Shown in pieces: positions 12,552 to 46,852 of a stretch of 46,852 nt of DNA (the stretch's first letter is position 1; every line of letters starts with the position of its first letter). The stretch is taken from positions 1 through 46,852 of IMG/VR virus record IMGVR_UViG_3300019124_000012; one strand, given 5' to 3'. A program made the translations under genes and the position numbers. The stretch comes from a virus. Below the pieces are notes generated by a model. It was not told where the DNA came from. It was given only the letters and a program-made list of their open reading frames with translations, and made no database searches.

Positions 12552-12552
12552 G

Positions 12553-15486
12553 TCAGCGAACGAGCCACTCTTCGACCTTGTCGGAGATGTCTCGCATCTT
12601 CCGCCAGCGTGGGCCTACAGGTTCGCCCTTGAGCATCCTGAGCTTTCCCATGAGCCCGATGGGCGACCACTCAGGGCGCTCCTCGCGAGGCACGTAGGGC
12701 CGATCAGGATCGTACTCAGGATTGAGGATACGCAGCTCTTCCCACACGTACTCAGCGTCCTCAGGAGGCACGACGCCCTCAGGGATCTTATCGACCTCGT
12801 AGACGAACGACGCTCGGTTGTTGGGATCGTCAGGATCGCCGTATGGATCGAAGTCAGGGTTCTTCCAGTAGACGCGCTGGACCCTACGCCTGAGGTAGTT
12901 CCCAAAGTCATCCCGAAGGTATTGGTCCTGCCAGCGTTCCTGGGCAGAGTCGCCCATCACAACAGGGCAGGCCGACACAACACCGATGATGTCCTCAGGG
13001 TCATCCGCAGCGGTCGCACGGCGCACCTTGTCGTCCACAAGGACCACGGACCAGCCGCGACGATCCTCGTTGTCAGGGTTACCATCCTCCCACTCGAAAT
13101 ACTCGGCATAGTCAGCGCCCGTGCCTGTGTAAGGACCGTCACCAAACGTTGCACCGTCGCCTCGCACATACCATTCGGTATCAGCCGCACCGTTGTTGTC
13201 CGAAGTGGCTCGGTAGAACTTGAAGCCGGTACTCTGAGTGCGATCCGCGTAAGAGCGGACAACGTCGTCAGCGGAACCAGACCGGTTGTAACCAAACAGA
13301 GCGCGGGAAGTAGACGTGTTGTACGCACCAAGCCCGTAAGCACCGGCACCAGCATCGATGAGCAACGCAGCGCCAGTGTTGTACTTGGCCGCGAGTACGT
13401 TCGACAGCCATGCACCGGCCCACGGCATGTAGAGGTTACCGTCAGAAGCCAGGTGCCACCCACCGCGACCATCAAGGGTCGCAGAGCCTAAGTAGGACAG
13501 ACCGTCGTTATACACACGGAAGCACCAAGCACCACCAGAGCCAACGAAGCCGATAGAGCCACCGTTGTTGTGAACAAAGCGGGTGCCTTCGTCCGTATCG
13601 TGCATCTCAAGCCACGATTGGTTCTGGCCCATACCCACACGGACCCTTTCGTTGGTGTTCAGGCCATTGGGGGTCCAGAGGGTGCCGCTAGAGCTGAGGG
13701 TCAGCAGGCTGGTTTCCCAGGCACCGGAAGCGCTCAGACGGTCGATATTGACCTGTCCTGCACGGCCATAGATGACGTTCTGCTTTCCATCGCCGCCCTT
13801 ACCAACCAGACGATAACCAGCCCACCCATCAGTTCCAGGGTGTTCAGCCGTGAAGCACCAACCAGCGCCTGTAGCAGTAACCGTTCCGGTGAAGGTCGCC
13901 CCAGAGAGGTTGGCCTTCTGAGCCAGGAGGTTATCCGCCTCGGTCTTGCTGTAGTAGTTCTGGGGATTCCACGTCTGAGCATTGGCCGCGCTCTGGGCTG
14001 CATTAGCGGCACTTGCGGCAGCATTGGCCTCAGAGGTCGCCGCAGCGTTCTTATGCGCCAGGGCAGAGGCAGCGGAGGTCGAGGCCTCGGAAGCCTTGGT
14101 AGAGGCCGTAGAAGCCGAAGAGGACGCATCGGCAGCCGAAGCCGCAGCCTCGGATGCTTTCGTGGTGATGAAAGTCGGATTGTCCGCGAGGAAGAGGATA
14201 TGCTCAACCTCAAACACGTCACCAACGGACCCCTCGGACGGGTCGAAACGGACACCCGTGATCGTGTTGGTCAACCAATCGGAGCCGTTGTTGATCTTTG
14301 TACTGTCCCTGAGGTCATAGACACAGTCGTACCAGACCCCATTGGCGAACGCCGGGGTTACGAGTGGTCGCCCGTTGTAGGCACCGTGACCGTGGCTGGC
14401 CGTCGTCCAATACAACTGCATCTGAGGGACAGCCGATCCGGTAGTGCGGCGAATACGGATCACAACCCTGGTGAACTTGCTGCCGTCAATGGACAGAGAG
14501 TTCCTCACGAAGTACAGGTCCGAATTGCTCCCGGTCTGTGTCACGACCAGAGGACCGCTTCCGCTCTGCGAGAGAGTGCCGTTGACACATGAGAAGCCCT
14601 GGACACCCTTGTTAGGGAACACAAAGGACTGAGGGTGAGCCTCTTGGAACGAGAGGGCCGTCAGGTACCCCTCAGCATACGCCCTCGCCGTCTCGGCTTT
14701 CGTCTCAGAGGTCTTTGCCGCATTTTCAGAAGCCTTCGCGTTGTTCTCGGAGGTCTTGGCAGCGGTTTCAGACGCCTTGGCGTTCGTCTCGGAGGTCTTG
14801 GCAGCAGTCGCACTTGCGGATGCCTCAGAAGCCTTTGTAGAGGCCGTAGAGGCCGATGTTGAGGCGTTGGAGGCGGAAGTAGCCGCAGCGTTCTTATGGC
14901 CCTCAGCGGTCGTCGCAGAGGCCGCAGCGGCGTTCTTAGACGCCAGGGCGTTGTCCTCGGAAGTCTTAGCCGCATTCTGGCTTGCGAGGGCCGCAGAGGC
15001 GCTTGAGGCCGCATTGGAGGCCGAAGTAGCCGCAGCGTTCTGAGAGGCCTTAGCGGCGTTCTCAGAGGCCTTGGCGTTCGTCTCGGAGGTCTTTGCGTTC
15101 TGCTCGGACACACTCGCAGCCACCTTGGAGGCCGCAGCCGCGTTGGCGTTGTCGATGGTCGCCTGGAGGGACTGAGCCGCCTGGGAGGCGCTGTTGGAGG
15201 AATCCGTTGCAGAGGCCGCAGAAGCCTGAGCGCTCAGATGGGCATCTTGGGCACTCGCAGCGCTGTTCGCAGCCTGGGTCGCGCTCGCAGCTCGGCTCGT
15301 ATCGGAAGCCTGAGCAGCCACAGAGGCGTTGAACGCGCTCTGGGCCGCATCGGCAGCAGCTTGGTCAGTCTCGCTCTTCTTCTGAAGAACGATGTTCATG
15401 GCCTCGGTAGCGTCTTCAAGCAGCTCCTGGGCCAAACGAATAGATGTCGGGCTGGGGTTGCCCTTGAAAAATCCTGAACTAGCCAT
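12553..15486 (-). CDS. Tail fibre / receptor-binding protein (977 aa from the ATG at 15486)
   Basis: Long Ala/Ser-rich repeats (AKTSETNAKASENAAK...), a central beta-rich domain, and a C-terminal GTGADYAEYFEWEDGN segment typical of autoproteolytic intramolecular-chaperone domains. The track start at 15495 is TTG. Confidence 0.75.
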   Translation of the reverse strand: MASSGFFKGNPSPTSIRLAQELLEDATEAMNIVLQKKSETDQAAADAAQSAFNASVAAQASDTSRAASATQAANSAASAQDAHLSAQASAASATDSSNSASQAAQSLQATIDNANAAAASKVAASVSEQNAKTSETNAKASENAAKASQNAAATSASNAASSASAALASQNAAKTSEDNALASKNAAAASATTAEGHKNAAATSASNASTSASTASTKASEASASATAAKTSETNAKASETAAKTSENNAKASENAAKTSETKAETARAYAEGYLTALSFQEAHPQSFVFPNKGVQGFSCVNGTLSQSGSGPLVVTQTGSNSDLYFVRNSLSIDGSKFTRVVIRIRRTTGSAVPQMQLYWTTASHGHGAYNGRPLVTPAFANGVWYDCVYDLRDSTKINNGSDWLTNTITGVRFDPSEGSVGDVFEVEHILFLADNPTFITTKASEAAASAADASSSASTASTKASEASTSAASALAHKNAAATSEANAAASAANAAQSAANAQTWNPQNYYSKTEADNLLAQKANLSGATFTGTVTATGAGWCFTAEHPGTDGWAGYRLVGKGGDGKQNVIYGRAGQVNIDRLSASGAWETSLLTLSSSGTLWTPNGLNTNERVRVGMGQNQSWLEMHDTDEGTRFVHNNGGSIGFVGSGGAWCFRVYNDGLSYLGSATLDGRGGWHLASDGNLYMPWAGAWLSNVLAAKYNTGAALLIDAGAGAYGLGAYNTSTSRALFGYNRSGSADDVVRSYADRTQSTGFKFYRATSDNNGAADTEWYVRGDGATFGDGPYTGTGADYAEYFEWEDGNPDNEDRRGWSVVLVDDKVRRATAADDPEDIIGVVSACPVVMGDSAQERWQDQYLRDDFGNYLRRRVQRVYWKNPDFDPYGDPDDPNNRASFVYEVDKIPEGVVPPEDAEYVWEELRILNPEYDPDRPYVPREERPEWSPIGLMGKLRMLKGEPVGPRWRKMRDISDKVEEWLVR

Positions 15487-32656: not shown

Positions 32657-33406
32657 TTAGATCCTCATGATGAAAGCGAGCGCATAGAACGGAGGACGGC
32701 CATCGGGGATCGAGACGTTGTGCGCGTGAGCGCCAGCCCAATCCATGCCGACACCGTGCGAGTGCGAGCCATCCGAATTGATGCCGTGGCGATGCCCCTG
32801 ACCACCACCAACCTTGCCTGTGGAGGTCGCTAGGTAGAGCGTGCCCTGGCCGAAGTAGTTGACCGCTGATGCAGAGCCGGTCCCCATGTTCCAGACGCTC
32901 GGAAGCGAGTGGTCGTGCGAGGGGATCTGGGCAATGGTCAGCGTGTGGTAGTCCGTGTAGCCACCGTGGTTGTGCGAGCCTGCCGCACCGGTCCATGCAG
33001 AGTGAACGTGAGAGCCCTGGGAATCCGTGGAGCCCCCTTGGGCCACAGAGCCACCGGTCGCTCCAACACCATACGAAGCACCAGCCCCTACGATGAAGCG
33101 ATCCTGAAGGTTCGGAGCGGTGATCTGACCGCCACCATCAGAGCGCGTATGGGTACCACCGTTACACAAGACCCAGCCTGCCGGGATCTGATTGATCGCA
33201 CCGGACCACATGAGGATGCCACCAATCGGCACACCACCATTCAACACATGCTGGGAAGCTGTTACGGGACCACTGATGTTCGGGAAGGTGTTCTTAAGAA
33301 CCTGCTTGATCAGCCTGATATGGTTATCGGTATCCGCAACTGGATCGGAACCAGCAGGGTTACCAGGGTTCAACGAATGTAAGTACGTTGCGGATTCAAT
33401 AGGCAC
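32657..33406 (-). CDS. Tail fibre protein with phage tail-collar domain and Gly/His-rich repeats (249 aa)
   Basis: GGILMWSGAINQIPAGWVLCNG...APNLQDRFIVGAG is the tail-collar signature. It is followed by GSHxH-type repeats (GSHVHS, GSHNHG, PSHDHS, GHRHG, GSHSHG, GAHAHN). GTG start. Confidence 0.8.
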   Translation of the reverse strand: MPIESATYLHSLNPGNPAGSDPVADTDNHIRLIKQVLKNTFPNISGPVTASQHVLNGGVPIGGILMWSGAINQIPAGWVLCNGGTHTRSDGGGQITAPNLQDRFIVGAGASYGVGATGGSVAQGGSTDSQGSHVHSAWTGAAGSHNHGGYTDYHTLTIAQIPSHDHSLPSVWNMGTGSASAVNYFGQGTLYLATSTGKVGGGQGHRHGINSDGSHSHGVGMDWAGAHAHNVSIPDGRPPFYALAFIMRI

Positions 33407-33444
33407 TTAAGGAATCCTTTGGTAATGAAAATTGATTGTTGAAG

Positions 33445-33474
33445 TAAAAGGGGAGCATCAGAGGCTCCCAAAAG
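33445..33474 (-). terminator. Hairpin GGGAGC-N7-GCTCCC with flanking A/T runs
   Basis: On the minus strand it reads cttttGGGAGCctctgatGCTCCCctttta. It lies upstream of the first structural gene, where it would stop minus-strand transcription coming from 34-35 kb. Confidence 0.45.
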
Positions 33475-33538
33475 AAGAACTTAAGGTTTTTCTTAAGATC
33501 TGAAGATTTCGCGGAGGCATCTGACGGCCTCTTCTTCT

Positions 33539-33584
33539 AAGAGTGGTCATCGGCTCGCATTTTTGGGCCTTAAGTCTTTGAAAC
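33539..33584. repeat. Left copy of the 45-46-bp inverted repeat (partner 40213..40257)
   Basis: The 29-bp core aagagtggtcatcggctcgcatttttggg (33539-33567) is the exact reverse complement of 40229-40257. The next 16 aligned bp match at 12-13 positions. Confidence 0.9.
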
Positions 33585-34068
33585 ATCGAAAAATTCCTGC
33601 TACATGCCCGACATTATTCCTAAGATTGCAATTGGCATGGATCAGGAGCGGTCGAAGCTCCGCAGCAGGACAACTTGTCGCACCCTAAGAGGAGCCTGGG
33701 GCCAGCCTGGGAGTCCCTGAGAGACTGAAGGTAGCGCGAATGTAACCGGTACCTTGAGGTTGGGCTGGGGGTGGACTTATGCGTCTGGGGAATATCTGGA
33801 GGAGTCCCAGAGGGTCACTCTCGCCTCCTCGGCTGAACAACAACGCTCGACCTTTAACCCTTTTTGCGAAGTGGGGTATGGCGGACCATAGGTGCCCCAT
33901 CCGCTCGCCTGGGACTCCTAAACTCGCCTGGGATCTGCCCCGCTTGTGTGCCCCGCAAGGGTGCTAAGTGCTTGAGTTAGCTTGTGTTTCTCAGGATAAG
34001 CAATCCCTAGCGTTGCGCTATTCATGCGAGAGCATGCGCGGACATTGGCGACATATCGCCAGCGCAAG

Positions 34069-34077
34069 TTATCCACA
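34069..34077 (+). promoter_or_regulatory. DnaA box, perfect consensus TTATCCACA
   Basis: Exact 9-mer, inside the 18-bp repeat cgcaagttatccacaaga (34063-34080). Confidence 0.6.
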
Positions 34078-34087
34078 AGATCGTGAG

Positions 34088-34096
34088 TTTTCCACA
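34088..34096 (+). promoter_or_regulatory. DnaA box variant TTTTCCACA
   Basis: One mismatch to TTATCCACA. Same orientation as box 1 and 19 bp away. Confidence 0.5.
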
Positions 34097-34155
34097 AGTG
34101 CCGCGAGATTTCGCGAGCTGCCGCTTGACATGCGCGAAACGCATGATCTCGCAAG

Positions 34156-34164
34156 TTATCCACA
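34156..34164 (+). promoter_or_regulatory. DnaA box, perfect consensus TTATCCACA
   Basis: Exact 9-mer in the second copy of cgcaagttatccacaaga (34150-34167). It is followed by the AT-rich tandem GAATTTT-a-GAATTTT. Confidence 0.6.
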
Positions 34165-34240
34165 AGAATTTTAGAATTTTGCATGTCAAGCCCTTGACAA
34201 AATTTTATTGCGCGGAACCGAATGCCCCTAAGATCCCATT

Positions 34241-34260
34241 AGAAGCCCACAGAAGCCCAC
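34241..34260 (+). repeat. Tandem 10-mer AGAAGCCCAC x2 (iteron-like)
   Basis: Two exact adjacent copies. An inverted partial copy, TGGGCTTC, is at 34311-34318. Confidence 0.8.
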
Positions 34261-34339
34261 GAACCCTATTTAGCTAGGATAGTAGCTCGCATGTATCCAA
34301 TGCCGCTCTATGGGCTTCCTATGCGATTTTACGGGCACA

Positions 34340-35008
34340 TTAGTGCAAGGGATAGCTAACGTTGCTGACGTTCTTATCCCAGCAGGCGCGGCATGGTCCG
34401 CAAGCATTCCCCTGGTTACGTGCGGGGCACACATGACCGGCTGGAGTTTCCGCCTTCCGATGCACGGTTGACGTATTCTCATGGTTCGCAAGCGGCTTAT
34501 CGCCAATCATGGTCGCACTAACGCGAACCACAAGGTTCTCAGGAAAATTCCCATAGGCCTTGCGATATTCCTTAATGATCTTTGCCTCGCGAGTCGGAAG
34601 CCAATGGCGGATTGTTGGCGTCTTCTCAGCAACGCGAACGATTGCCTTAAGCATGTCCAAGCTCTGGAGATCGCCACTATCGAACCAACGATGGAAAGGC
34701 TCGCCTGTCTTCTCAGAAGCCTTGACGATTTGGAACGCCATTGCATCGGACCACTTCTCAGGATTCTCCGAGATCATGCGAGTTGCTTTGAGATAGTTGG
34801 CTTCCCATCCCATGTTGACGCTAGGCCGCATGTTCTGGAGCTTGAGAGCATAGCAACGCGAGCAAACAGAACCTTCGATTTGCGCGAGCTTTCCGCCAAC
34901 GTTGCAGCGCTTTGCTGAGATCGCAAAAGAAGAGCCCGGCATCTTTGTGTTGCGCGTAGAGATTTCGCCAGCTTCCGCCTTAGCAGCCTTAAGAGTCATT
35001 GCGACCAT
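34340..35008 (-). CDS. Cys-rich protein resembling the phage 'gene product 88' family, function unknown (222 aa from the ATG at 35008)
   Basis: N-terminal C-x14-C-x2-C (CNVGGKLAQIEGSVCSRCYA), HRWFDSGD segment, and C-terminal C-x8-C-x2-C-x2-C (CPARNQGNACGPCRAC). GGAGAA RBS before 35008. The family name is from memory and not verified. Confidence 0.6.
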   Translation of the reverse strand: MVAMTLKAAKAEAGEISTRNTKMPGSSFAISAKRCNVGGKLAQIEGSVCSRCYALKLQNMRPSVNMGWEANYLKATRMISENPEKWSDAMAFQIVKASEKTGEPFHRWFDSGDLQSLDMLKAIVRVAEKTPTIRHWLPTREAKIIKEYRKAYGNFPENLVVRVSATMIGDKPLANHENTSTVHRKAETPAGHVCPARNQGNACGPCRACWDKNVSNVSYPLH

Positions 35009-35054
35009 TGTTTTCTCCTTTCTTGCGTTGGTGGTTCGCGTTGATTTGTGGCTC

Positions 35055-35073
35055 TTAGATACATGCGAATTAC
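35055..35073 (+). promoter_or_regulatory. Cassette variant ttAGATACATGCGAATTAC in the divergent control region
   Basis: Matches the 43100 copy (GATACATGCcAATTAC) and points toward the early genes. Confidence 0.35.
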
Positions 35074-35116
35074 GTTGGATTGCAAGAGGCAATTTTTTGC
35101 CCCTGTTGGCACATTC

Positions 35117-35135
35117 TGTCGCACCCCTGTCGCAC
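35117..35135 (+). repeat. Tandem TGTCGCAC motifs 11 bp apart (TGTCGCACCCCTGTCGCAC)
   Basis: The exact 13-mer TGTCGCACCCCTG recurs at 35196-35208. Further TGTCGCAC copies are at 33676 and 40078, with TGTCGCAT at 37351. Confidence 0.8.
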
Positions 35136-35195
35136 AAGAGATAAGCGCCAGAACCGTTGATTTGCTTATGCTTTTCCCCTGCCAATGGTCACTTT

Positions 35196-35208
35196 TGTCG
35201 CACCCCTG
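35196..35208 (+). repeat. Third TGTCGCACCCCTG copy in the divergent control region
   Basis: Exact 13-mer repeat of 35117-35129. Confidence 0.8.
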
Positions 35209-35365
35209 AATTTTCCGCTTGCATCGTAATTGGCATGCGTTTATTTGTAGTGCCACAAGCTGATTTGAACGGCTCACGAATACTTCGGAATACTCAAGCG
35301 CCTGAGGGGGCCTGGGGTCGAGGGGGCTAGGGGCCAGGAGGCGATAGGCCAGGAGGCTGCTAAGG

Positions 35366-35842
35366 ATGAAAGTCGAGGTCTACTTCAACTTGCACAGAAA
35401 GGTCTGGAGCGTCCGCAACGCTAAGACCAAGCGCCTAGTGGGGCATGCGTCTAGGCTCTTGCTTCGTGATGCCACGTTCAAGGTATCGGAAGCGGGTCGC
35501 CAGAGGGTTCTGAGGGAGCGCAAAAAGAACGTCCATGCGTTCGTGCGCGGGGAGCTGGAGGCTGCGGCCTGGGGCTTCGTGATGCTCGACCATCAGAGCA
35601 TCGGAACCGAATGGAACCTCTGCAAGCGCTCGAATAACGCCTATGCGCGAGCTGCTAACCGGCTTGGGGAGGAAGTCTCTTACAATCCCTACAAGGGGCC
35701 TTCGTTCTACCGCAAGTGGGACGGGGCAGAGGTGGCAGAGGCCGATATGGTCTACATGACCCTTGAGAACCACAAGGGGCGCGTGATGGCCTTCGACCCC
35801 TGCCAGATGAGCGCAGAAGAAAGCGCAATGGCTACCGAATAA
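35366..35842 (+). CDS. Hypothetical early protein (158 aa)
   Basis: AGGAGG lies 9 nt upstream. First ORF of the plus-strand early block. Confidence 0.6.
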   Translation: MKVEVYFNLHRKVWSVRNAKTKRLVGHASRLLLRDATFKVSEAGRQRVLRERKKNVHAFVRGELEAAAWGFVMLDHQSIGTEWNLCKRSNNAYARAANRLGEEVSYNPYKGPSFYRKWDGAEVAEADMVYMTLENHKGRVMAFDPCQMSAEESAMATE

Positions 35843-35849
35843 CTGTGTC

Positions 35850-35867
35850 CAGATACAACGTAATTAC
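35850..35867 (+). promoter_or_regulatory. Cassette cAGATACAACGTAATTAC (best consensus copy; candidate phage RNAP promoter)
   Basis: Followed by tGGAGatcgcacATG of the next gene. AGATACAACGTAATT is identical to the copy at 39965. Confidence 0.5.
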
Positions 35868-35879
35868 TGGAGATCGCAC

Positions 35880-36158
35880 ATGACGACCGTGCTTTATCGC
35901 GAGGACTTTCCTGTCGCCTGCATCGAGGCTTGCTCGGCACCTGGGGACGTGTCTGAGGCCGTCGAATACTGGCTCGACACCGTAGGCCTGCCTGAGGCCG
36001 TCAGCCGGGAGGAGGCCATTGATTACCTTGAGGCCACTGGAGGCTGGGAGCGGGATGAGCTGGAGGGCATGGGGATCGATGAGCTGCACAAGCGCATCCT
36101 CTGGCTTGCCTGCTGCACCTTCAACGAAGGCGACGACATCTTCTGCCTGGAGGCCTGA
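35880..36158 (+). CDS. Strongly acidic small early protein (92 aa)
   Basis: 22 Asp/Glu versus 5 Lys/Arg, counted by hand. First gene after a consensus cassette. Confidence 0.6.
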   Translation: MTTVLYREDFPVACIEACSAPGDVSEAVEYWLDTVGLPEAVSREEAIDYLEATGGWERDELEGMGIDELHKRILWLACCTFNEGDDIFCLEA

Positions 36159-36161
36159 TCG

Positions 36162-36338
36162 ATGTACGAGGTTTGCTACTGGATGCCCACTAGCAAGCGC
36201 TGGGTTCGCCTCGACCGCTTCGGGGCACGGTGGAGGGCTCAGGACTACCTAGAGCGCCTGCAAAGGGAGATGCCTGAGGAGACTTTCGCCCTGTTCGACT
36301 GTGATGGCTGTGAGATCGAGGTAAGGGAGGCTGCATGA
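36162..36338 (+). CDS. Hypothetical small protein (58 aa)
   Basis: Read by hand (MYEVCYWMPTSKRWVRLDRFGARWRAQDYLERLQ...). Its stop overlaps the next ATG. Confidence 0.4.
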   Translation: MYEVCYWMPTSKRWVRLDRFGARWRAQDYLERLQREMPEETFALFDCDGCEIEVREAA

Positions 36339-36457
36339 GCGAGCAAAAGCCTATCCGCTGTGAATACTGCGGACACTACTACCTGAAGCCTTGCGATGCT
36401 GAGAGGCAGAAGGCTTGCCAGAACGTGAAGCTCAAGGATCGAAAGGAGGCCGCTTGA
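36335..36457 (+). CDS. Possible Cys-rich 40-aa peptide
   Basis: MSEQKPIRCEYCGHYYLKPCDAERQKAC. ATGA/TGATG coupling on both sides. Confidence 0.35.
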   Translation: MSEQKPIRCEYCGHYYLKPCDAERQKACQNVKLKDRKEAA

Positions 36458-36690
36458 TGGCTGCTGAGAATGACGAGGTTAGCTACGTGGTCCTGGTGGA
36501 CGATGGACACTCTGAAGTAATTCTCGGCTCGCCCAACAGGACACAGGCAGAGACGCTGTTCTGGATACTCACTGACTACGTGAACCGTGGGGAGGCTGAC
36601 TCGGTCGAACTTAAGGAGATGCACAGGGGCAAGCCTCTGGAGGCCGATAGAACCTTGATGGTCTGGGATAAGGAGTGTGTGGATGGTTGA
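36457..36690 (+). CDS. Hypothetical protein (77 aa)
   Basis: ATG overlaps the previous stop, with GGAGG upstream. Confidence 0.5.
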   Translation: MAAENDEVSYVVLVDDGHSEVILGSPNRTQAETLFWILTDYVNRGEADSVELKEMHRGKPLEADRTLMVWDKECVDG

Positions 36691-36967
36691 AACTTCGGAA
36701 CTCAGGTTCAACCTACCGGCCAAGCGGATCAAAATGCTCCGCGAGCTGGTCCGCAAGATGCCTGAGTACAAGCGCAAGCTGGAGGCAGAGCGCAAGCACC
36801 TAGCGGAGCTGCGGGAGGCCTGGGATCGGAACGACGGGAACAACCCTAATAAGTTCCGGTCGGACATCGAGAACGCGAAGCTCTCAATCGAGATTTACGA
36901 GAGCTGGGTGAAGTCTGGGGAGGAGGCTTTAGACGAGCTTATCGATACGATGATATTGGACGACTGA
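36683..36967 (+). CDS. Hypothetical coiled-coil protein (94 aa)
   Basis: AGGAG lies 8 nt upstream of the ATG at 36683. Confidence 0.5.
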   Translation: MVETSELRFNLPAKRIKMLRELVRKMPEYKRKLEAERKHLAELREAWDRNDGNNPNKFRSDIENAKLSIEIYESWVKSGEEALDELIDTMILDD

Positions 36968-37069
36968 CGGTCGCTCTATAGGGCTCATCGATCCACCGGT
37001 GGGCCTCGATAGAGTGATCCCCTGACCAGGGATCGTTCGTAGTTACATTAGGTCACGGAAGGATTCGCT

Positions 37070-37294
37070 ATGGCAAATGAACCAGATATGGGGCCGGTTG
37101 AGATCCAACTCGCTCGCCTCAGCATGATTGGCGAAGTTCAGCTCATGCAGGAAGGACTCGCCTATATTATCGAGCTTGCGAACCGCAGGCTGCTTCAGGT
37201 CTATGTGCCTGGAAAAGATGGGGTTTTGACTGAGACAGATGTTGTCTCTGCGAACTTCAACGGACCCTTTATTGACATCCATCTGGAGGATTGA
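37070..37294 (+). CDS. Hypothetical protein (74 aa)
   Basis: ORF preceded by cacGGAAGGattcgctATG. Confidence 0.5.
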   Translation: MANEPDMGPVEIQLARLSMIGEVQLMQEGLAYIIELANRRLLQVYVPGKDGVLTETDVVSANFNGPFIDIHLED

Positions 37295-37397
37295 GTCCTT
37301 ACGGTAGAGCTAATCCTAAGGATTGAGTCCTTTGCTACCTGTGGAAAAAATGTCGCATTGAATGGTGTTCGCGAAACGTTCTTCTAGCAGAATACGT

Positions 37398-37418
37398 TTG
37401 AATGCCACATACATTCAA
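37398..37418. promoter_or_regulatory. Candidate operator: TTGAATG-N7-CATTCAA perfect inverted repeat
   Basis: The 21-bp palindromic site lies 32 nt upstream of the winged-helix gene. A related 9-bp palindrome, CATTGAATG, is at 37356-37364. Confidence 0.4.
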
Positions 37419-37450
37419 TTGTTCACTCCGGCCTATTTGGAGATCGCACA

Positions 37451-37888
37451 ATGATGATCATGCTAGAGAACCTCACCATGAATGCAGCAACCGCTTCTGG
37501 GGTCCGAATGGCGTCAGACAAATACGCACGGCCCTCAGATGAGGCCGTTGCCGCCCTGGACCGCTCTTATCGTCTTATAAAGGCCTTCCGCGATCGTGAT
37601 CACAAGATGCCAATCAGTTACATGGCCGCATTCATTGTGGTGGCACGTTTCCCAGGCATGGGACCGTCGTTCTATGCTGAGAAGCTCGGTACCACTCAGC
37701 CGGTCGCCTCCCGCACCCTTCAAGAGATCGGCACGAATCCTCGCGTGAAGGGCAAAGGCCTGGAGCTGGTGGACAGCGAGATTGATCCAGGCAACCGCAG
37801 GCAGCACCGCTACTTCCTGACCCCTAAGGGCCGTGGGCTCTACCGGGACATTCTGACGATCATGGGTGAAGCCGCAGGACACGCCTAA
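37451..37888 (+). CDS. Winged-helix (MarR-like) transcriptional regulator, candidate prophage repressor (145 aa)
   Basis: TTQPVASRTLQEIG...LELVDSEIDPGNRRQHRYFLTPKG fits the recognition helix plus beta-wing of MarR-type wHTH proteins. It has its own 156-bp upstream region and lies beside the integrase. Confidence 0.5.
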   Translation: MMIMLENLTMNAATASGVRMASDKYARPSDEAVAALDRSYRLIKAFRDRDHKMPISYMAAFIVVARFPGMGPSFYAEKLGTTQPVASRTLQEIGTNPRVKGKGLELVDSEIDPGNRRQHRYFLTPKGRGLYRDILTIMGEAAGHA

Positions 37889-38056
37889 ATGATACAAATT
37901 GTCATTGTAACGCTTTTACTGTTGATTGTATGGGCAGCATTAGGTAGAGTGGCGAAAGCAATGGGGAGCGACAACCCCTTCGCCCCTCTCGGTTTGATGT
38001 ATGTGCTGGTCTGCTTCGGGTTCGTGGGGATGCTGATCCTCGGCACCTTTAGCTGA
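37889..38056 (+). CDS. Small two-TM membrane protein (55 aa)
   Basis: Read by hand (MIQIVIVTLLLLIVWAALG...LMYVLVCFGFVGMLILGTFS). Starts 1 nt after the regulator stop. Confidence 0.4.
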   Translation: MIQIVIVTLLLLIVWAALGRVAKAMGSDNPFAPLGLMYVLVCFGFVGMLILGTFS

Positions 38057-38062
38057 CCAAGG

Positions 38063-38087
38063 GAGGCTCTTCGGAGCCTCTCTTTTG
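38063..38087 (+). terminator. Factor-independent terminator GAGGCTC-TTCG-GAGCCTC-tcttttg
   Basis: 7-bp perfect stem, UUCG tetraloop and a T-rich tail after the regulator/TM pair. Confidence 0.65.
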
Positions 38088-38114
38088 AACCTGATATATG
38101 GGAGTTACGGTATT

Positions 38115-39281
38115 ATGCCAGTCTACATGGAAATGCGTAACGGTAAGCCTACGGGCGTCTGGATTGTCGAGGTCACGGTCAACCGGAAGCGCATGCCTCG
38201 CGTCCGTTGCCAGACGAAGCAGGAAGGCCTGAAGGTCGAGCAGCTCATCAAGGCTGGCCTGTATGACTTCGACAACAAGGACGTTCGCTCTCAGACAGGC
38301 TACACCCTTGGGCACCTCATGAACGACGAGCGCATGCTCAAGGAATGCTGGCCGACCACTGACCGGGATCGCCACAACAGCATGCGTCGGTTCCGTGAGT
38401 GCTGCGAGATCATCGGCACCAATGTGCTGCTCTCGGACCTCAAGACGGAACACATCGATGAGCTGATCGAGGAGCTGGAGAAGCGCCCTGCCCGTAAGCA
38501 GCGGACCAAGCGCAACCCCAACTCGGACAAGCAATACCGTTTCAGGGTCAAGCATGGTCTGACGAACCCTGACAATCAGGCCAAGACCCTCGCGCCTGCG
38601 ACCATCAACCGGTATCTGGCCGCGCTCTCGGAAGCTCTCGATTGGGCCAACACCCGCGAGTCCACCGGCTTCCTGGGCAAGCGCAACACGATCCACTTCT
38701 CCTGGCGTGACGAGCGCGGGAATGAGCGCGAGCATTGGCTCACCCCTGAGGAAGAGATCAGGATCGTGGAGTACCTGAGGACCAATAACGAAGACCCGCG
38801 CCCTGATGTGGCGACCGTGGTTCAGGTGCTGTGCGCGACCGGATGTCGTGTGGGCGAGATCCTCAAGCTCAAGCCGGATGCCATCGATCCCCTCGATGAA
38901 ACCATCCGCCTGGACCGCAAGACGACCAAGGGCAAGAAGACCCGCTACCAGCCGCTGGATCAGGCCCTGTGCATCGCCCTGAGGAACCTCAAGACCTCAG
39001 GCAAGATGCCGTCCTACAAGGTCATCCAGAGGCAGTTCTACCGCGCCAGGAAGGCCTGCAAGGTGGAATGTGCGGACATCACCCTTCACGGCCTGCGGCA
39101 CACCGTAGGAACGCAGATGCAGATCGCAGGCTTCACCATCGAGGAGACGGCGCAGTTCCTGGGTCACAGCTCGACCAGGGTCACAGAGCGCTACCAGCAT
39201 GCTGCCCTTCAGCAGAAGCGCCTGACCCTCGCGAAGCTCAAGGTGTCCAAGCAGCAGATGTTGGAGGCAAACAAGGCATGA
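38115..39281 (+). CDS. int: Tyrosine recombinase / phage integrase (388 aa)
   Basis: Catalytic boxes ATGCRVGEIL (Arg), HGLRHTVGT (H-x-x-R) and LGHSSTRVTERYQH (His...Tyr). Confidence 0.9.
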   Translation: MPVYMEMRNGKPTGVWIVEVTVNRKRMPRVRCQTKQEGLKVEQLIKAGLYDFDNKDVRSQTGYTLGHLMNDERMLKECWPTTDRDRHNSMRRFRECCEIIGTNVLLSDLKTEHIDELIEELEKRPARKQRTKRNPNSDKQYRFRVKHGLTNPDNQAKTLAPATINRYLAALSEALDWANTRESTGFLGKRNTIHFSWRDERGNEREHWLTPEEEIRIVEYLRTNNEDPRPDVATVVQVLCATGCRVGEILKLKPDAIDPLDETIRLDRKTTKGKKTRYQPLDQALCIALRNLKTSGKMPSYKVIQRQFYRARKACKVECADITLHGLRHTVGTQMQIAGFTIEETAQFLGHSSTRVTERYQHAALQQKRLTLAKLKVSKQQMLEANKA

Positions 39282-39493
39282 CGTTTGAAGAGTTCCTGAC
39301 GGACTTCGTTACGTTCTTCTCGACGTTACATAAGAACCCTGCGTTCTGGCTTTGGCTCCTCACGCTGGTCGCGGCCTACTTCCACATAGGACAGCTTGAG
39401 AAACAGTGGGACGCTGAGAAGCGCAGGCTGGTCGATGAGATCGGAGCTTTGAAGATCAAGCTCGGTAAACTGACCGGCAATTGGGACTTCTGA
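39278..39493 (+). CDS. Hypothetical membrane/coiled-coil protein (71 aa)
   Basis: ATGA-coupled to the integrase stop. TM segment AFWLWLLTLVAAYF. Confidence 0.45.
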   Translation: MTFEEFLTDFVTFFSTLHKNPAFWLWLLTLVAAYFHIGQLEKQWDAEKRRLVDEIGALKIKLGKLTGNWDF

Positions 39494-39519
39494 TCGAGTT
39501 ACCTTTAGCAGCCAAACTT

Positions 39520-39545
39520 GGGGCCTTCTGAGGCCCCTTTTTTTA
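39520..39545 (+). terminator. Factor-independent terminator GGGGCCT-tctg-AGGCCCC-TTTTTTT
   Basis: 7-bp GC stem followed by a T7-8 run, downstream of the integrase operon. Confidence 0.75.
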
Positions 39546-39675
39546 TCCCCAGGCACTTCCCTAGCCTGGAGCGCCCAATCGGCCTGTACGGGCTTCCTAC
39601 GCGATCTCTGGGCCTATTACGTTTCAACAGTAAGTCCGATTTTTGCCTTCAACTGTTGAACCAAGGGCTTGAGCC

Positions 39676-39693
39676 TTGACATATCGTAATTAC
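39676..39693 (+). promoter_or_regulatory. Cassette variant TTGACATATCGTAATTAC
   Basis: Shares CGTAATTAC with the consensus and begins with a TTGACA hexamer. Confidence 0.3.
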
Positions 39694-39858
39694 GGTTATT
39701 CCGGGGAGTTTTGTCCTTTTATTCCCAGAATGCCCCGTGCGGGGTACTTTGCGGGGCATTTTCGCTTCGTAATTGCAATTGTATTCTTGCCACACCAGCC
39801 TAAGAGCCTGAGATTGCTCACTAATTTTGCTGGGGATAAATTCAGGCAGTCATTCGAG

Positions 39859-39871
39859 GGATTTGCAGTCC
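39859..39871. other. 13-nt copy of the tRNA-Cys anticodon stem-loop (GGATTTGCAGTCC); candidate attP core
   Basis: Identical to 11525-11537 inside the phage tRNA-Cys gene, in the same orientation. It lies in the integrase-RNAP spacer and has the layout GGA / 7 nt / TCC. Confidence 0.35.
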
Positions 39872-39963
39872 AGGTCGTTACGCCCCTTCCTGCCCCGCAC
39901 CTGAACGGCGATTCCTTAAGACTTCCAACGGGTTAGTTGATGTCAAGGGTCGCTGGCACCCCG

Positions 39964-39981
39964 CAGATACAACGTAATTCC
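39964..39981 (+). promoter_or_regulatory. Cassette cAGATACAACGTAATTCC sitting in the loop of a 9-bp inverted repeat
   Basis: AGATACAACGTAATT is identical to the 35851 copy. It is flanked by CCCCGCAGA (39960-39968) and TCTGCGGGG (39990-39998). Confidence 0.4.
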
Positions 39982-40150
39982 ACATGGTTCTGCGGGGCAC
40001 TTGACCCGGCCCTCCTCTACCCCGCAGCTTCACCGGTTGCAAGCCGCTACCTTGTTACTGCCAAGCCTGAGTCAGCTTGTCGCACTTATGGCCCAGCTTT
40101 TCCACAGCAAAGCTCTTGCGCGTACACCCGCGTATGGTATCTAAAGCGCA

Positions 40151-40168
40151 TCGACTCATCGTAATTCC
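40151..40168 (+). promoter_or_regulatory. Cassette variant tcGACTCATCGTAATTCC upstream of the RNAP gene
   Basis: Shares CGTAATTCC with the 39964 copy. Confidence 0.3.
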
Positions 40169-40212
40169 AGTTCAAATGGAGCTACGGAGCAAAACAGGGT
40201 TTTATCGTTGGA

Positions 40213-40257
40213 TTTCAAACGGTTAAGACCCAAAAATGCGAGCCGATGACCACTCTT
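40213..40257. repeat. Right copy of the 45-46-bp inverted repeat (partner 33539..33584)
   Basis: The 29-bp core cccaaaaatgcgagccgatgaccactctt (40229-40257) is the exact reverse complement of 33539-33567. It ends 61 nt upstream of the RNAP ATG. Confidence 0.9.
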
Positions 40258-40318
40258 GCCCAGACGGCGATCTCAAACCCTGGTCCCCTCGATGGGACGC
40301 AACAAACGGGAAACAGAC

Positions 40319-42880
40319 ATGCTGCTTGATGCAACCAACTCCGCTTCCGCCACCCTGAATCCTTGGGAGGCTCGTAAGCTCTCTTTTGATCGTCAGAACG
40401 ACCGCAACATCCGCAACAATGGCTATTCCGCCACGGAAGCTGCTCAGGCGATCATCCGCAAGTTCATGGCCGAAACCACGGAGGCCGTGACCAAGGCTCA
40501 GGCTCAGGAGGTGGACTACCGCAACCAGCGGGAACATGAGTTCCAAGAGATCGCCCGTGAGATGGACCCTGAGGTTCTGGCGCTCATTGCGCTGACCGGG
40601 GGCATCCATGCGACCGCTGAGGACATGAACTACACCAACACGGTCCTTCATCTCGGTGAGATGGTTGAGGATGAGGTGTGGGCTCAGGGCCTCTATGCTC
40701 GCGATAAGGTTCTCGCTCGCAACCTTGAGAAGGCTGCTTCCAAGCGCCACGGTCGTGTCTCTGCCCGTAAGCAGGCCGTCAAGAAGATGGCTGCGAAGAA
40801 GGGCTACTCTCAGAAGGCCTGGACCCGCGAGGAGTGGGCTACGGCTGGAGCGTGGCTCTTCAACGTCCTGATCGAGACTTCCGCCTTCATGGCCGTGAAG
40901 CGCACCGACACGAACGACTATGGGACCGAAGAAACCTTCCTCGCCATGACCGAAGAGGCTCTGGCTGTGGGTGAGGCCTTCGTCCAGATGATCCTCGACC
41001 AGTACCCGATCCATCAGCCGCTCCTCAAGAAGCCTGCGCCCTGGAAGGGGCCTGAGAAGGCTCTGGAGTTCGATGGCCGGTCCTACCGTGTTCCCCTGGT
41101 TCGTAAGGACTGCAAGGTTGTTCAGTCTCACGTTGCCAATGCGATCAAGACCGGTCGCATGGATGGCGTTCTGGAGGCCATGAACAACATCGAGAGCGTG
41201 GCCTGGACGATCAACGAGCCCATGCTGGAGCTGGTCGAGTGGGCCTACAACGCGGACCCGCGCTGGGGCGAAGGCTACCGGAAGCGCCTGGAGGGCCTGC
41301 CGCCTCGCCGGAACCTCAAGGAGGTCAAGCTGCCTCAGGACACGGAAGGCAACGATATTCCTTTCGAGATGCTCGATGAGGGCCAGCGCAAGGCCTACCT
41401 GATCGCTCTCGACAAGGAGCAGACCGCGAACCGCGCCTTCAACGGCCAGCGTCGGACCCTTGAGAAGGATCTCGGCACGGCCTGGAGGATCGTGGAGGGT
41501 GGCAACAAGTTCTGGACGCCCTGCAACATGGACTACCGGGGACGGGTCTACTACCTCCCGCAGTTCAACTTCCAGCGCCAGGACTATGTCCGGTCCCTCT
41601 TCCTGTTCGCATCGGGCGAGAAGCTCAACGAGGAAGGCCTCTACTGGCTCAAGGTCCACGTCGCGAACACGGGTGCCTTCGACAAGATGGACAAGGCCCC
41701 CTTCCCTGATCGCGTGAAGTGGGTAGACGACAACATGGAGATGATCCGTGGCGTGGCTGCGGACCCCAAGGGCACCTTTGCCACCTGGGGCGAGGCTGAT
41801 GCTCCCTTCATGTTCGTCGCGGCCTGCATCGAGCTGGTGGCTGCTCTGGATAACCCTGAGTACATCTGCCGCCTGCCGGTCAACTTCGACGGCTCCTGCT
41901 CTGGCCTTCAGCATCTGGCTGCAATGACCCGCTGCGCTCGGACTGCCACCCTGGTGAACGTGAGCCCCACGGAGCGCCCTGGCGACATCTACCGGACGGT
42001 CTGGGAGGCTGTGCTTCCCAAGTTCCAGTGGGATGCCAAGCACGGCGAAGGCGAGACGAAGGTGATGGGCCAGTTGGTGGTCGATCACAACGGAGGTCGC
42101 GGCCTCGTTAAGCGGAACGTGATGGTGTACTCTTACGGCTCCAAGAAGTTCGGCATGGCTGAACAGCATCAGGAAGACCTGATGAAGCCCCTGGAGCTGA
42201 AGGTTCTCCGCAAGGAGCTGAAGGACCATCCGTTCGCCATGCCTGACGAGAAGTTCCCCGGCCAGAAGGTCGCCAAGTATCTCGCAGGGCACATCTTCGA
42301 CACCATCGAGGAGGTGGTCGAGAAGCCTGCCCAGGCCATGAAGTACCTCCAGCACATTGCGAAGGTCATGGCCCATGAGGGCAAGCCGGTGATCTACCAC
42401 ACGCCCCTTGGGTTCCCTGTGGTGATCCGCTGCCCCAATGAGAAGGTCGAACGGGTTCGCCTGTTCCTCCATGATCGCGGTGTGAAGAGCCCCATCAGGG
42501 CTTCGATCACCAAGGACGATGCCGGAATCGATAAGAAGGCTGCGGCCAACACCATCGCTCCTGGCTTCGTTCATTCTTATGACGCATGCCATTTACAGTT
42601 GGTTGCCAATTCCTGTGTGAAGGAGGGCATCCGCGAGCTGGCATTCGTTCACGATAGCTTCGGGTGCCTGCCCAACAAGGCCGGTCGCCTGCGGCAGATC
42701 CTCGTGGAGCAGTTCTATTGGCTCTACGCCATGCACGATGTTCTGGAGGACATCCGCCAGGAAGCTCTCCAGCAACTCGAAACCAACAAGGACAAGCTCT
42801 CTGACTCTTTCGACACTCAGTACGGGAAAGGAGGGCTGAACATCGAGGCTGTTCTTGATGCACAGTACGCATTTGCTTGA
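40319..42880 (+). CDS. Single-subunit DNA-dependent RNA polymerase (T7 gp1-like), 853 aa
   Basis: Motifs DGSCSGLQHLAA, RNVMVYSYGSKKFG and FVHDSFG. The start is uncertain: ATG 40319 was chosen, with ATG 40292 and TTG 40256 as alternatives. Confidence 0.9.
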   Translation: MLLDATNSASATLNPWEARKLSFDRQNDRNIRNNGYSATEAAQAIIRKFMAETTEAVTKAQAQEVDYRNQREHEFQEIAREMDPEVLALIALTGGIHATAEDMNYTNTVLHLGEMVEDEVWAQGLYARDKVLARNLEKAASKRHGRVSARKQAVKKMAAKKGYSQKAWTREEWATAGAWLFNVLIETSAFMAVKRTDTNDYGTEETFLAMTEEALAVGEAFVQMILDQYPIHQPLLKKPAPWKGPEKALEFDGRSYRVPLVRKDCKVVQSHVANAIKTGRMDGVLEAMNNIESVAWTINEPMLELVEWAYNADPRWGEGYRKRLEGLPPRRNLKEVKLPQDTEGNDIPFEMLDEGQRKAYLIALDKEQTANRAFNGQRRTLEKDLGTAWRIVEGGNKFWTPCNMDYRGRVYYLPQFNFQRQDYVRSLFLFASGEKLNEEGLYWLKVHVANTGAFDKMDKAPFPDRVKWVDDNMEMIRGVAADPKGTFATWGEADAPFMFVAACIELVAALDNPEYICRLPVNFDGSCSGLQHLAAMTRCARTATLVNVSPTERPGDIYRTVWEAVLPKFQWDAKHGEGETKVMGQLVVDHNGGRGLVKRNVMVYSYGSKKFGMAEQHQEDLMKPLELKVLRKELKDHPFAMPDEKFPGQKVAKYLAGHIFDTIEEVVEKPAQAMKYLQHIAKVMAHEGKPVIYHTPLGFPVVIRCPNEKVERVRLFLHDRGVKSPIRASITKDDAGIDKKAAANTIAPGFVHSYDACHLQLVANSCVKEGIRELAFVHDSFGCLPNKAGRLRQILVEQFYWLYAMHDVLEDIRQEALQQLETNKDKLSDSFDTQYGKGGLNIEAVLDAQYAFA

Positions 42881-43103
42881 CCTGATCGCCCAGGAGTTCG
42901 GCCTGGACGAACAGGAGATCATCGAACGGTCCCTCCTCGCTCTTGAGGAGGGCACCACAGAAGAGCGGCTTCAGGCCGTTCTTTTGCGTTTGGAGGAGGA
43001 CATTCCGGTCCCGGTGGACCTGGGAGCCTCCCTGATCGCGGAGGGAGTGATCCTGAGCGATCTTGAGGATGAGGAAGCCTACATCGGCTTCTCTTTCGCC
43101 TGA
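42858..43103 (+). CDS. Strongly acidic small protein (81 aa)
   Basis: 20 Asp/Glu versus 3 Arg, counted by hand. Overlaps the RNAP 3' end by 23 nt. Confidence 0.5.
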   Translation: MHSTHLLDLIAQEFGLDEQEIIERSLLALEEGTTEERLQAVLLRLEEDIPVPVDLGASLIAEGVILSDLEDEEAYIGFSFA

Positions 43104-43117
43104 TACATGCCAATTAC
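43100..43117 (+). promoter_or_regulatory. Cassette variant cTGATACATGCCAATTAC downstream of the RNAP gene
   Basis: Lies in the 32-nt spacer and overlaps the preceding stop codon. Confidence 0.35.
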
Positions 43118-44406: not shown

Positions 44407-44636
44407 ACGATCAGTACACCAACCGTCTCTTCAAGGCCGGGGACCGCATCAAGGTCCGTGACAACAAGGAAAGCACCCAGCAGATCGCTGGCATGACCGG
44501 TACTGTCCTGGCGCTCAACCTGTTCGCCCCGGTCTGGTTCGACGTGGAGCTGGATCAGGACGTGCCGATCCCCGGCTACAAGGGTCGCATCGTCCACCTC
44601 TTCGATGAGGAGATGGAGCTTATCGATTTCGCCTGA
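44403..44636 (+). CDS. Hypothetical protein (77 aa)
   Basis: ATGA-coupled to the SPFH stop. Confidence 0.5.
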   Translation: MNDQYTNRLFKAGDRIKVRDNKESTQQIAGMTGTVLALNLFAPVWFDVELDQDVPIPGYKGRIVHLFDEEMELIDFA

Positions 44637-44650
44637 AACAACGTAATTAC
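44633..44650 (+). promoter_or_regulatory. Cassette cTGAAACAACGTAATTAC upstream of the SSB gene (candidate phage RNAP promoter)
   Basis: Core ACAACGTAATTAC is identical to the 1453 and 35855 copies, with an RBS-like GGAA downstream. Confidence 0.5.
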
Positions 44651-46531: not shown

Positions 46532-46852
46532 TGGGTACCTTCGTTCGTCACGCTGAATGCCTCAACCCCAAGTGTGGCTCCAGCGATGGACGAGGTGTCT
46601 ATGAGGACGGAAGCTCCTGGTGCTTCGTCTGTGAAACCTACTTCCACGCTGATGGGGCTGAGGGCGACACCAACCCCCACTTCGACCCCACCACCTTCAA
46701 GTTCAGCAAAGGAGACTACGTAGACATCCCCAAGCGGGGACTGAAGGAAGCCACATGCCGCAAGTACGGCTATCAGGTCGCCAAGGACCGCCATATCGCG
46801 CCCTACCGTGGCGCAAACGGCCAGATCATCGCTCAGAAGATCCGCAAGGCCG
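46531..46852 (+). CDS. DNA primase/helicase, N-terminal Zn-finger part (continues at base 128 of the window)
   Basis: MGTFVRHAECLNPKCGSSDGRGVYEDGSSWCFVCETYF is a gp4-type CxxC...CxxC zinc ribbon. The frame is continuous with 1..1446 through the 127-bp overlap. Confidence 0.9.
   Translation, partial: MGTFVRHAECLNPKCGSSDGRGVYEDGSSWCFVCETYFHADGAEGDTNPHFDPTTFKFSKGDYVDIPKRGLKEATCRKYGYQVAKDRHIAPYRGANGQIIAQKIRKA
46726..46852. repeat. Terminal overlap of the contig, identical to 1..127
   Basis: Exact 127-bp identity, read directly. Confidence 0.95.

Follow-up and report, generated by a model that had tools for sequence, protein, structure and literature searches.

Bacteriophage T7 carries a tandem pair of promoters, phi1.1A and phi1.1B, just after the gene of its own RNA polymerase (RNAP). 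Pseudomonas phage LUZ100 has a phage-specific promoter, phi1, directly upstream of its RNAP gene and beside a MarR-like/integrase operon (PMC10134795). Eight phage promoters have been mapped experimentally in LUZ100, all on one strand of a collinear T7-type genome (PMC10134795). That paper also cites a model of temperate T7-like phages in which positive feedback by the RNAP is checked by a MarR-like protein (PMC10134795). Here we analyze an inverted repeat in a viral DNA of 46,852 nucleotides (nt), IMG/VR record IMGVR_UViG_3300019124_000012; this whole stretch is called the window. The repeat brackets a control and lysogeny region of about 6.7 kb. We consider it quite probable, on comparative grounds, that the repeat consists of two copies of a promoter for the phage's own T7-type RNAP, one for each of two divergent gene arms.

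The inverted repeat and its counterparts in related phages

The phage of the window, designated W, was compared with the relatives L009, L011, L014–L016, L018–L020, L033 and L034. Bases 1–127 of the window are repeated exactly as bases 46726–46852. This 127-bp terminal duplication is therefore the overlap of a circular assembly, and the window is a complete phage genome of ~46.7 kb. Judged by its predicted genes, W is a temperate phage that combines a T7-like single-subunit RNAP with a MarR-like regulator and an integrase.

The arms of the repeat, 33539–33583 and 40213–40257, are reverse complements over 45 nt with 41 identical positions (91%) and lie 6629 nt apart. Among the inverted repeats that a repeat search found in the window this pair is the longest, the runner-up being 35 nt at 77%. 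A reading of this DNA from the sequence only had already described the inverted repeat, although the left arm ends at 33583 and not at 33584 as given there. The exact 29-bp core claimed in that reading is indeed perfect (CCCAAAAATGCGAGCCGATGACCACTCTT, 40229–40257 on the plus strand and 33567–33539 on the minus strand), and 12 of the other 16 positions are identical, where 12–13 had been claimed. With up to three mismatches allowed, the 29-mer has only two sites in the window, against an expectation of 0.00 from 100 dinucleotide-preserving shuffles. A third, diverged copy was not found in the window with the 3' 18–20 nt as a query and up to 6/20 mismatches.

Both copies point outward, in the direction of transcription of the first gene of each arm, as the earlier reading had it; family matches bear out its identification of these genes as a tail-collar gene starting at 33406 (minus strand) and an RNAP gene starting at 40319 (plus strand). 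Copy R, on the RNAP side (40213–40257, plus strand), would have its +1 at G 40258, 61 nt before the RNAP ATG. Copy L, on the side of the structural arm (33539–33583, minus strand), would start at A 33538, 132 nt before the tail-collar start. Apart from this repeat, W has no significant repeated non-coding element that is directed into each of the two arms.

Relatives were sought in several collections. IMG/VR, queried with a 20-mer of the core or with the RNAP protein, contained no relative above ~32% RNAP identity, and the phage isolate database contained no close one (RNAP at most about 30% and capsid at most about 39% identical). A 20-mer scan of Joint Genome Institute (JGI) metagenome contigs gave two matches, both due to chance and in unrelated contexts. 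A large protein collection provided RNAPs that are 42–57% identical to that of W, from contigs of 26–47 kb. A genome scan added further relatives, namely a prophage of Microvirga flocculans ATCC BAA-817 (L020) and a contig binned with a metagenome-assembled genome of Thiothrix.

Six of the relatives (L009, L014, L015, L016, L018 and L034) have a common architecture: a tail-collar gene on the minus strand, ~1.2 kb of non-coding DNA, plus-strand early genes, a MarR-like regulator, a small open reading frame (ORF), an integrase and the RNAP. Eight relatives, these six together with L019 and L020, have the repeat at one or both of the positions that it occupies in W. All eight have a homologous copy 30–70 nt upstream of the RNAP gene, and in the six another one heads the tail arm. 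In L009, L014, L015, L016 and L018 the top-scoring inverted repeat adjoins the tail-collar gene on one side and lies 30–60 nt before the RNAP ATG on the other. L034 has a weaker pair of 15–16 nt at both equivalent positions, which is not top-ranked. L019 has an exact inverted pair of 18 nt: one copy precedes the RNAP gene by ~70 nt, and the other lies in unannotated surroundings. The comparison of related genomes that had been proposed as a check of the repeat was thus carried out: the repeat is kept at the same positions, though its sequence differs between phages.

The last 20 nt of 21 copies from eight phages have a mean identity of 0.91 within a phage (minimum 0.80) and of 0.32 between phages. 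By this comparison the repeat evolves in concert within each phage. Since the copies are near-identical within a phage and different between phages, both of them would be read by something phage-specific.

Several relatives have more than two copies. There are four in L016 (+9934, +12959, +13290 and −1999), four in L018 (+9949, +12731, +12777 and −1853) and three in the available part of L020 (+9937, +12872 and +12911). In all three, two of the copies lie just past the RNAP gene; L018 and L020 have them in tandem within a single intergenic gap, and in L016 they are separated by ~330 nt. All copies in all phages are co-directional with the downstream genes. Such a multi-copy layout after the RNAP gene is not expected of operators, recombination sites or leader RNAs. 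The repeated unit is only 21–27 nt long in L016 and L018, without a 5' extension. In W, L009, L014 and L015 the copies are also alike for 16–20 nt further upstream (to ~45 nt), with the motif TTCAA...CTTAAGrCC. In the Microvirga flocculans prophage (NZ_JAEA01000002.1, 9700–12940) the element reads CAyTTTTGTkGACCTTAA/GGAA three times, with one copy ahead of the RNAP gene and two tandem copies behind it; here and below a slash separates the 3' end of an element from the start sequence.

A probable promoter pair for the phage RNAP

The form of the element resembles that of T7-type promoters. T7-like 3' ends and starts are CTTAA/GGGAGG and /GGAAGG in L018 and L020, TTTA/GAGAA in L014 and L015, and CCCATA/GG in L019. 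The L014 element matches the T7 consensus at 13 of 23 positions, as counted by hand. A purine stands where conservation stops in every copy of W, L009, L014, L015, L018 and L020. In L019 one of the two copies is bounded by a purine and the other is followed by T, and in L016 the start could not be placed. A stem-loop directly follows several of the copies. The copies of W read TCTT/A and TCTT/G, with a purine start and an AT-rich segment weaker than TTAA/GG, TTTA/GA or CATA/GG of the relatives.

The second line of evidence comes from sister phages. In T7 RNAP, residues R746, N748, R756 and Q758 of the specificity loop read promoter positions −7 to −11. The RNAP of W can be aligned with T7 RNAP over the catalytic motifs and this loop. 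The RNAPs of L014 and L015 are 81% identical, and their differences cluster at the equivalent of T7 residues 744–750 (NNQICLYL versus TNRLNLWL; QTRLNL in T7). In their elements the flanks are retained, and the differences fall in the central ~20 nt. The elements of L018 and L020 (GTTACGCTTAA versus GTGGACCTTAA) differ at −9 to −6 only, and so do those of W and L009 (TGACCACTCTT versus TGGAGCCTCTT), with ACCA in W and GAGC in L009 at these positions. In both of these pairs the RNAPs differ at the equivalents of T7 residues 746/748 or 756/758. Positions −6 to −12 of the element thus seem to co-vary with the specificity loop of the RNAP, a correlation drawn from three sister pairs.

A phage that encodes a T7-like RNAP needs specific promoters. 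We favor the RNAP as the reader of the repeat because of the number and layout of the copies, their T7-like form, the co-variation, and the mismatch with the recognition helix of the MarR-like regulator (see below). The inversion of the copies most likely reflects the organization of the genome in two divergent arms. The sequence-only reading had suggested a promoter-operator or insulator module, duplicated so that one regulator gates both arms. This suggestion is borne out in part: the promoter pair, one per arm, stands, and its most plausible reader is the phage RNAP rather than a repressor or insulator protein.

Several observations weigh against such promoters or complicate them. The W variant (...CACTCTT/A or G) is not AT-rich at −4 to −1 with a GGG start, and W has two copies only. 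The perfect core of 29 nt and the similarity over 45 nt exceed a canonical T7-type promoter of 17–23 bp, and therefore something besides a promoter may also be encoded in the unit; the 16 nt at its less conserved 5' end may hold an auxiliary site or one for a regulator. A terminator-like hairpin (33469–33451) lies between copy L and the tail-collar gene and would require read-through. The regulators of sister phages diverge as well (62% identity for L014 and L015), so that a part of the element may have an operator role. Finally, another multi-copy oriented motif, designated M, is also promoter-like, with a purine after it and some near-leaderless spacings, and is found 44 nt from both copies.

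From the sequence we infer that the RNAP reads the copies from starts at 33538 and 40258; the feedback loop and its repression, outlined here, have the same basis. The first RNAP molecules would come from host-dependent transcription, either by read-through past the terminator at 39520 or by initiation between the phage attachment site (attP) and the RNAP gene. The RNAP would then fire copy R, amplifying its own synthesis in a positive feedback and transcribing the arm of replication and nucleotide metabolism, and would fire copy L, turning on the morphogenesis and lysis arm with its virion genes. By analogy, copy R would be autoregulatory, as described for LUZ100. A lysogen would have to keep this loop silent, and the MarR-like regulator is the probable agent, in line with the proposal for LUZ100 (PMC10134795). 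With attP situated between the integrase gene and copy R, integration would carry the RNAP gene and its promoter to the opposite end of the prophage from the operon of regulator and integrase.

A promoter pair of this kind is the expected biology for such a temperate phage, here in an uncultured lineage. It would account for the most conspicuous repeat of the genome and give a simple transcription map of two phage promoters, two arms and a self-driven RNAP gene. The lineage itself consists of uncultured temperate phages in which a T7-type RNAP and replication module is joined to a non-T7 structural module. The comparison would provide independent support for autoregulation of the RNAP in the lysis-lysogeny switch, an idea that comes from LUZ100 and other temperate T7-like phages. 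The eight RNAP/promoter pairs, with changes localized to positions −6 to −12 and to the specificity loop, may be regarded as a natural experiment in promoter recognition and as a panel of candidate orthogonal pairs. One member of the lineage is a prophage of a cultured strain, Microvirga flocculans ATCC BAA-817, and thereby a tractable system.

Other readings of the repeat

An extended version of the promoter reading treats the 45-nt unit as a composite switch, in which the RNAP promoter (3' ~25 nt) is combined with a regulator site (5' ~16–20 nt, TTCAA...CTTAAGrCC) and with motif M 44 nt away. M is found at 40150–40168 on the plus strand (17.1 bits), exactly 44 nt upstream of copy R, and at 33628–33646 on the minus strand (18.8 bits), exactly 44 nt upstream of copy L. 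We hold this version only tentatively and think it rather unlikely as a whole. If it were true, one MarR-like repressor or host factor would gate both the self-amplification of the RNAP and the virion genes, the whole lytic program would run from two self-promoters as a bistable loop, and the RNAP gene would lose its physical link to the lysogeny operon upon integration at attP.

An improbable reading, which nevertheless has several points in its favor, is that the repeat or its variable core is an operator pair bound by a phage-specific repressor, MarR-like or other, that silences both arms in the lysogen as OL and OR do in lambda. The geometry is lambda-like, as the sequence-only reading had noticed, and, like immunity specificities, the sequence is particular to each phage and evolves in concert. 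The regulators of L014 and L015 are only 62% identical, and the similarity over ~45 nt in W, L009, L014 and L015 goes beyond a normal T7-type promoter. In addition, the LUZ100 paper cites a model with MarR sites flanking the promoter upstream of the RNAP gene (PMC10134795).

The likeness to lambda does not extend to the mechanism: the 45-mer has no dyad symmetry, there is a single copy per side, and sigma-70 hexamers are absent (a scan of 33000–40800 found no sigma-70-like sites). Operators need not share the orientation of the downstream genes, but all copies of the element in all phages do. The extra copies after the RNAP gene in L016, L018 and L020, the T7-like 3' ends and start sequences, and the short unit of 21–27 nt without a 5' extension in L016 and L018 also speak against operators.

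The candidate lysogeny repressor itself is a MarR-like winged-helix protein encoded at 37451–37888 on the plus strand (phrog_9665, E = 2.5e-19; PDB 2eth of the Mar family, E = 0.016). Its single-sequence structure model, which is of low confidence (pLDDT 56), matches MarR-family structures only. Its recognition helix, QPxxSRxLxEIG, is common to all seven phages compared, while the element cores differ completely. A conserved helix therefore fits a conserved operator rather than a core that is different in every phage. The sole MarR-type perfect palindrome of the genome, TTGAATG-N7-CATTCAA at 37398–37418, precedes the regulator gene, where it may serve as an autoregulatory operator; a search of the window found none near the repeat. 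The region upstream of this gene (37289–37418) also contains a direct repeat, GGATTGAGTCCTT, at 37289 and 37321.

It is very improbable that the repeat acts as a transcribed RNA element, that is, as a nut- or put-like leader made from an upstream promoter (for example motif M) that modifies the polymerase for terminator read-through. The nutL/nutR and putL/putR sites are likewise inverted pairs around an immunity region, a copy of M stands exactly 44 nt upstream of both copies, and a terminator-like hairpin lies downstream of copy L. The 45-mer, however, folds no better than shuffled sequences in either orientation (z = +0.13, +0.37 and +0.16), and Rfam gave no match at a permissive threshold, so that the sequence-only suggestion of a transcribed element found no confirmation. 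The relatives keep neither its sequence nor its structure but do keep hairpins just downstream, and their multi-copy T7-like layout is unexpected for nut- or put-like sites.

Still less credible is the suggestion that the arms are the ends of an invertible or mobile segment, whose recombination flips or moves the 6.7-kb control region. The inverted repeat does bracket a tyrosine recombinase gene, but this recombinase is the phage integrase, and an attP-like site related to tRNA-Cys lies inside the segment. All six relatives annotated on both sides (L009, L014, L015, L016, L018 and L034) have the same orientation, integrase and then RNAP, and three relatives carry extra direct copies outside the segment. 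A single orientation is likewise seen in L019, the seventh relative available on both sides, whose second copy is unannotated. Flipping would also cut both arms off from their leaders. In the Microvirga prophage the host DNA, containing a host gene, ends ~300 bp upstream of the RNAP gene. As attP is inside the segment and host DNA stands beside the RNAP gene in this prophage, the bracket exists in the circular form only; after integration it would be the arms, and not the control region, that the two copies flank. We therefore do not retain the suggestion, on the grounds of the single orientation, the direct copies and the internal attP.

The integrase and RNAP genes of relatives are separated by DNA whose minus strand contains the 3' half of tRNA-Cys(GCA) (L009:9612–9660, L014:9587–9635 and L033:1–47), which is probably attP. 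At this place W keeps only a 14-nt anticodon arm (GGGATTTGCAGTCC, ~39861–39874); a complete tRNA-Cys(GCA) is present elsewhere in its genome, at 11491–11564 on the minus strand.

Finally, inward-facing sigma-54 promoters (TGGTCA-N5-TCGCA) driving the control region, a match that the sequence-only reading had itself called weak, can practically be dismissed: the GG-N10-GC spacing is found in W only, the L009 equivalents GGCTCCACTTTTGG and GGCTCCAGTTTTCG lack the GC at −12, the elements of the other relatives are unrelated in sequence, so that the dinucleotides are not kept, and there is no enhancer-binding protein gene among the annotated ORFs.

Genome context and comparison with known systems

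The plus-strand arm begins with the gene of the T7-like single-subunit RNAP (40319–42880; PF00940, E = 7e-85; phrog_414, E = 8e-184). It continues with SSB, primase-helicase, DNA polymerase, ThyX, exonuclease, PhoH, MazG and ribonucleotide reductase (RNR), crosses the window ends and reaches ~11.3 kb. The minus-strand arm begins with the tail-collar/tail protein gene (32657–33406; phrog_5795, E = 4e-32; PF07484) and runs from 33406 through ejection proteins, terminase, portal, scaffold, capsid and tail fibre to an endolysin at 12108. The 980-aa tail-fibre gene contains degenerate repeat arrays with a period of 21 nt (7 aa) at 14026–15117. At the convergence point of the arms (11589–11640) there is a 24-nt palindrome flanked on each side by A/T runs (AAAAAACCCCTGGA...TCCAGGGGTTTTTT), which is likely a bidirectional terminator.

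Between the arms, ~0.9 kb of non-coding DNA is followed by a GP88-family gene on the minus strand, an L5-gp82-like gene and small ORFs. The regulator gene comes next (37451–37888), then a 55-aa ORF, the integrase gene (38085/38115–39281, plus strand), a strong intrinsic terminator of the regulator-integrase operon, and ~680 nt of non-coding DNA with the attP-like region. The terminator (39520–39537, plus strand; GGGGCCTTCTGAGGCCCC followed by seven T) is thus upstream of the attP-like region and copy R. ATG 38115, directly after a copy of motif M, is the probable integrase start. The GP88-family (PF17338) gene at 35185/35064–34340 on the minus strand is the real gene there, with ATG 35064 as its probable start; an overlapping plus-strand ORF at 34481–34918 has no family match. 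Within the ~0.9-kb non-coding DNA by copy L, three direct 18-nt iterons are present at 34063–34167, two of them with the sequence CGCAAGTTATCCACAAGA (34063 and 34150) and the third, at 34082, as a 78% copy. They hold the only two perfect DnaA boxes of the genome (TTATCCACA), and this region may mark a replication origin.

The leader of the RNAP mRNA has a stem-loop, GTCCC-CTCGAT-GGGAC (40283–40298, plus strand), read directly from the sequence. It is kept in L009, L014, L015 and L016 with other stems (GGCCC/GGGCC, GCCC/GGGC and GGGGC/GCCCC) and with the loops CTCGAT, CCTGAT or CGCTGAT, and RNAalifold recovered only a 3-bp invariant core from the RNAP leaders. This stem-loop may stabilize the mRNA or be a translational operator. 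The leader of the structural arm (33440–33538, minus strand) is strongly structured, with a minimum free energy of −33.7 kcal/mol (z = −4.08). Its 5' hairpin (33531–33514) and its terminator-like hairpin with a T-run (33469–33451) are able to pair with each other, and the leader may attenuate or delay late expression. Five of the 11 CTTAAG sites of the genome fall within 33293–33574, and the tail-side leaders of the relatives are rich in CTTAAG/CATAAG repeats.

Motif M has the consensus CCTGAnACAAnGnAATTAC, whose core is palindromic, e.g., CGTAATTACG or GCCAATTGGC. A position weight matrix scan gave 22 matches of at least 11 bits in the window, at least 12 of them strong, against about 2.7 in shuffled sequences. 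Besides the two copies near the repeat, M was located at 1447–1465, 9237–9255, 35849–35867, 38090–38108, 39675–39693, 39963–39981, 43099–43117 and 44632–44650 on the plus strand and at 12552–12534, 18342–18324, 24255–24237 and 35084–35066 on the minus strand. Almost all strong copies stand 1–40 nt before start codons and are co-oriented with the genes, four of which have AATT-NNN-ATG. The genes preceded by M include early genes and those of integrase, SSB, RNR, terminase, capsid and endolysin. M is also conserved in relatives, e.g., at L011:14121, L009:6385 and L014:5336.

M was considered as a promoter of the phage RNAP and rejected. It is nearly identical in phages with different specificity loops (18/19 between W and L011) and is therefore unlikely to be the promoter of this enzyme. 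M-like matches near the 3' ends of the RNAP genes of relatives were also discarded, being coding sequence for a QIxTNxHR motif. Compared by eye with the consensus sequences of sigma-70, sigma-54, extracytoplasmic-function (ECF) sigma factors, CtrA, IHF and DnaA, M had no convincing fit, and a literature search for its core sequence found nothing relevant. M may belong to a second class of promoters, be bound by a regulator or host factor, or serve as a signal in translation or processing. Its reader may be a conserved factor of the phage or the host, or M may act at the RNA level. M could also represent an undescribed class of gene-start signals, in the form of promoters for near-leaderless mRNAs or of signals for translation or processing.

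Among known systems, DNA-inversion switches (Hin/Gin/Cin and Fim) share with W an inverted repeat that bounds a recombinase-encoding segment. They differ in that the recombinase of W is an integrase with its own attP, the relatives have one orientation, and extra direct copies occur elsewhere. The OL/PL and OR/PR regions of lambda, as well as nutL/nutR, are likewise inverted outward-facing sites around an immunity or lysogeny region. W lacks tripartite dyad-symmetric operators, sigma-70 −35/−10 hexamers and a boxB-like hairpin, and its sites would be read by the phage RNAP, whereas those of lambda are read by the host RNAP with CI and Cro.

Promoters of the T7 group (phi1.1A/B and phi10 of T7; those of T3, SP6 and K11) are much closer. 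They too are short, asymmetric, intergenic, co-directional and near-identical within a phage, and their specificity is tied to the specificity loop of the cognate RNAP, as sequence comparison suggests here. The relatives of W also have the tandem pair after the RNAP gene and starts of the TTAA/GGGAGG type. W differs from this group in having only two copies, one per divergent arm and one of them upstream of the RNAP gene itself, and in the 45-nt similarity with its 29-nt perfect core. Its element shows no sequence relationship to the consensus of T7, T3 or SP6, and it lacks TATA/GGG. The RNAP of W is only about 30% identical to those of Autographiviridae, and its structural module is not T7-like: the best match of the capsid among isolated phages, about 38% identical, is to non-T7 phages.

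LUZ100 has the same order as W, where the regulator (37451–37888) is followed by the integrase (to 39281), the terminator (39520–39537), the element (40213–40257) and the RNAP gene (40319). The proposed logic, self-amplification of the RNAP restrained by a MarR-like protein, is also the same. The promoters of W are predicted, whereas those of LUZ100 were mapped experimentally. A further difference is that the second copy in W heads an opposite structural arm, which turns the pair into an inverted repeat around the lysogeny region.

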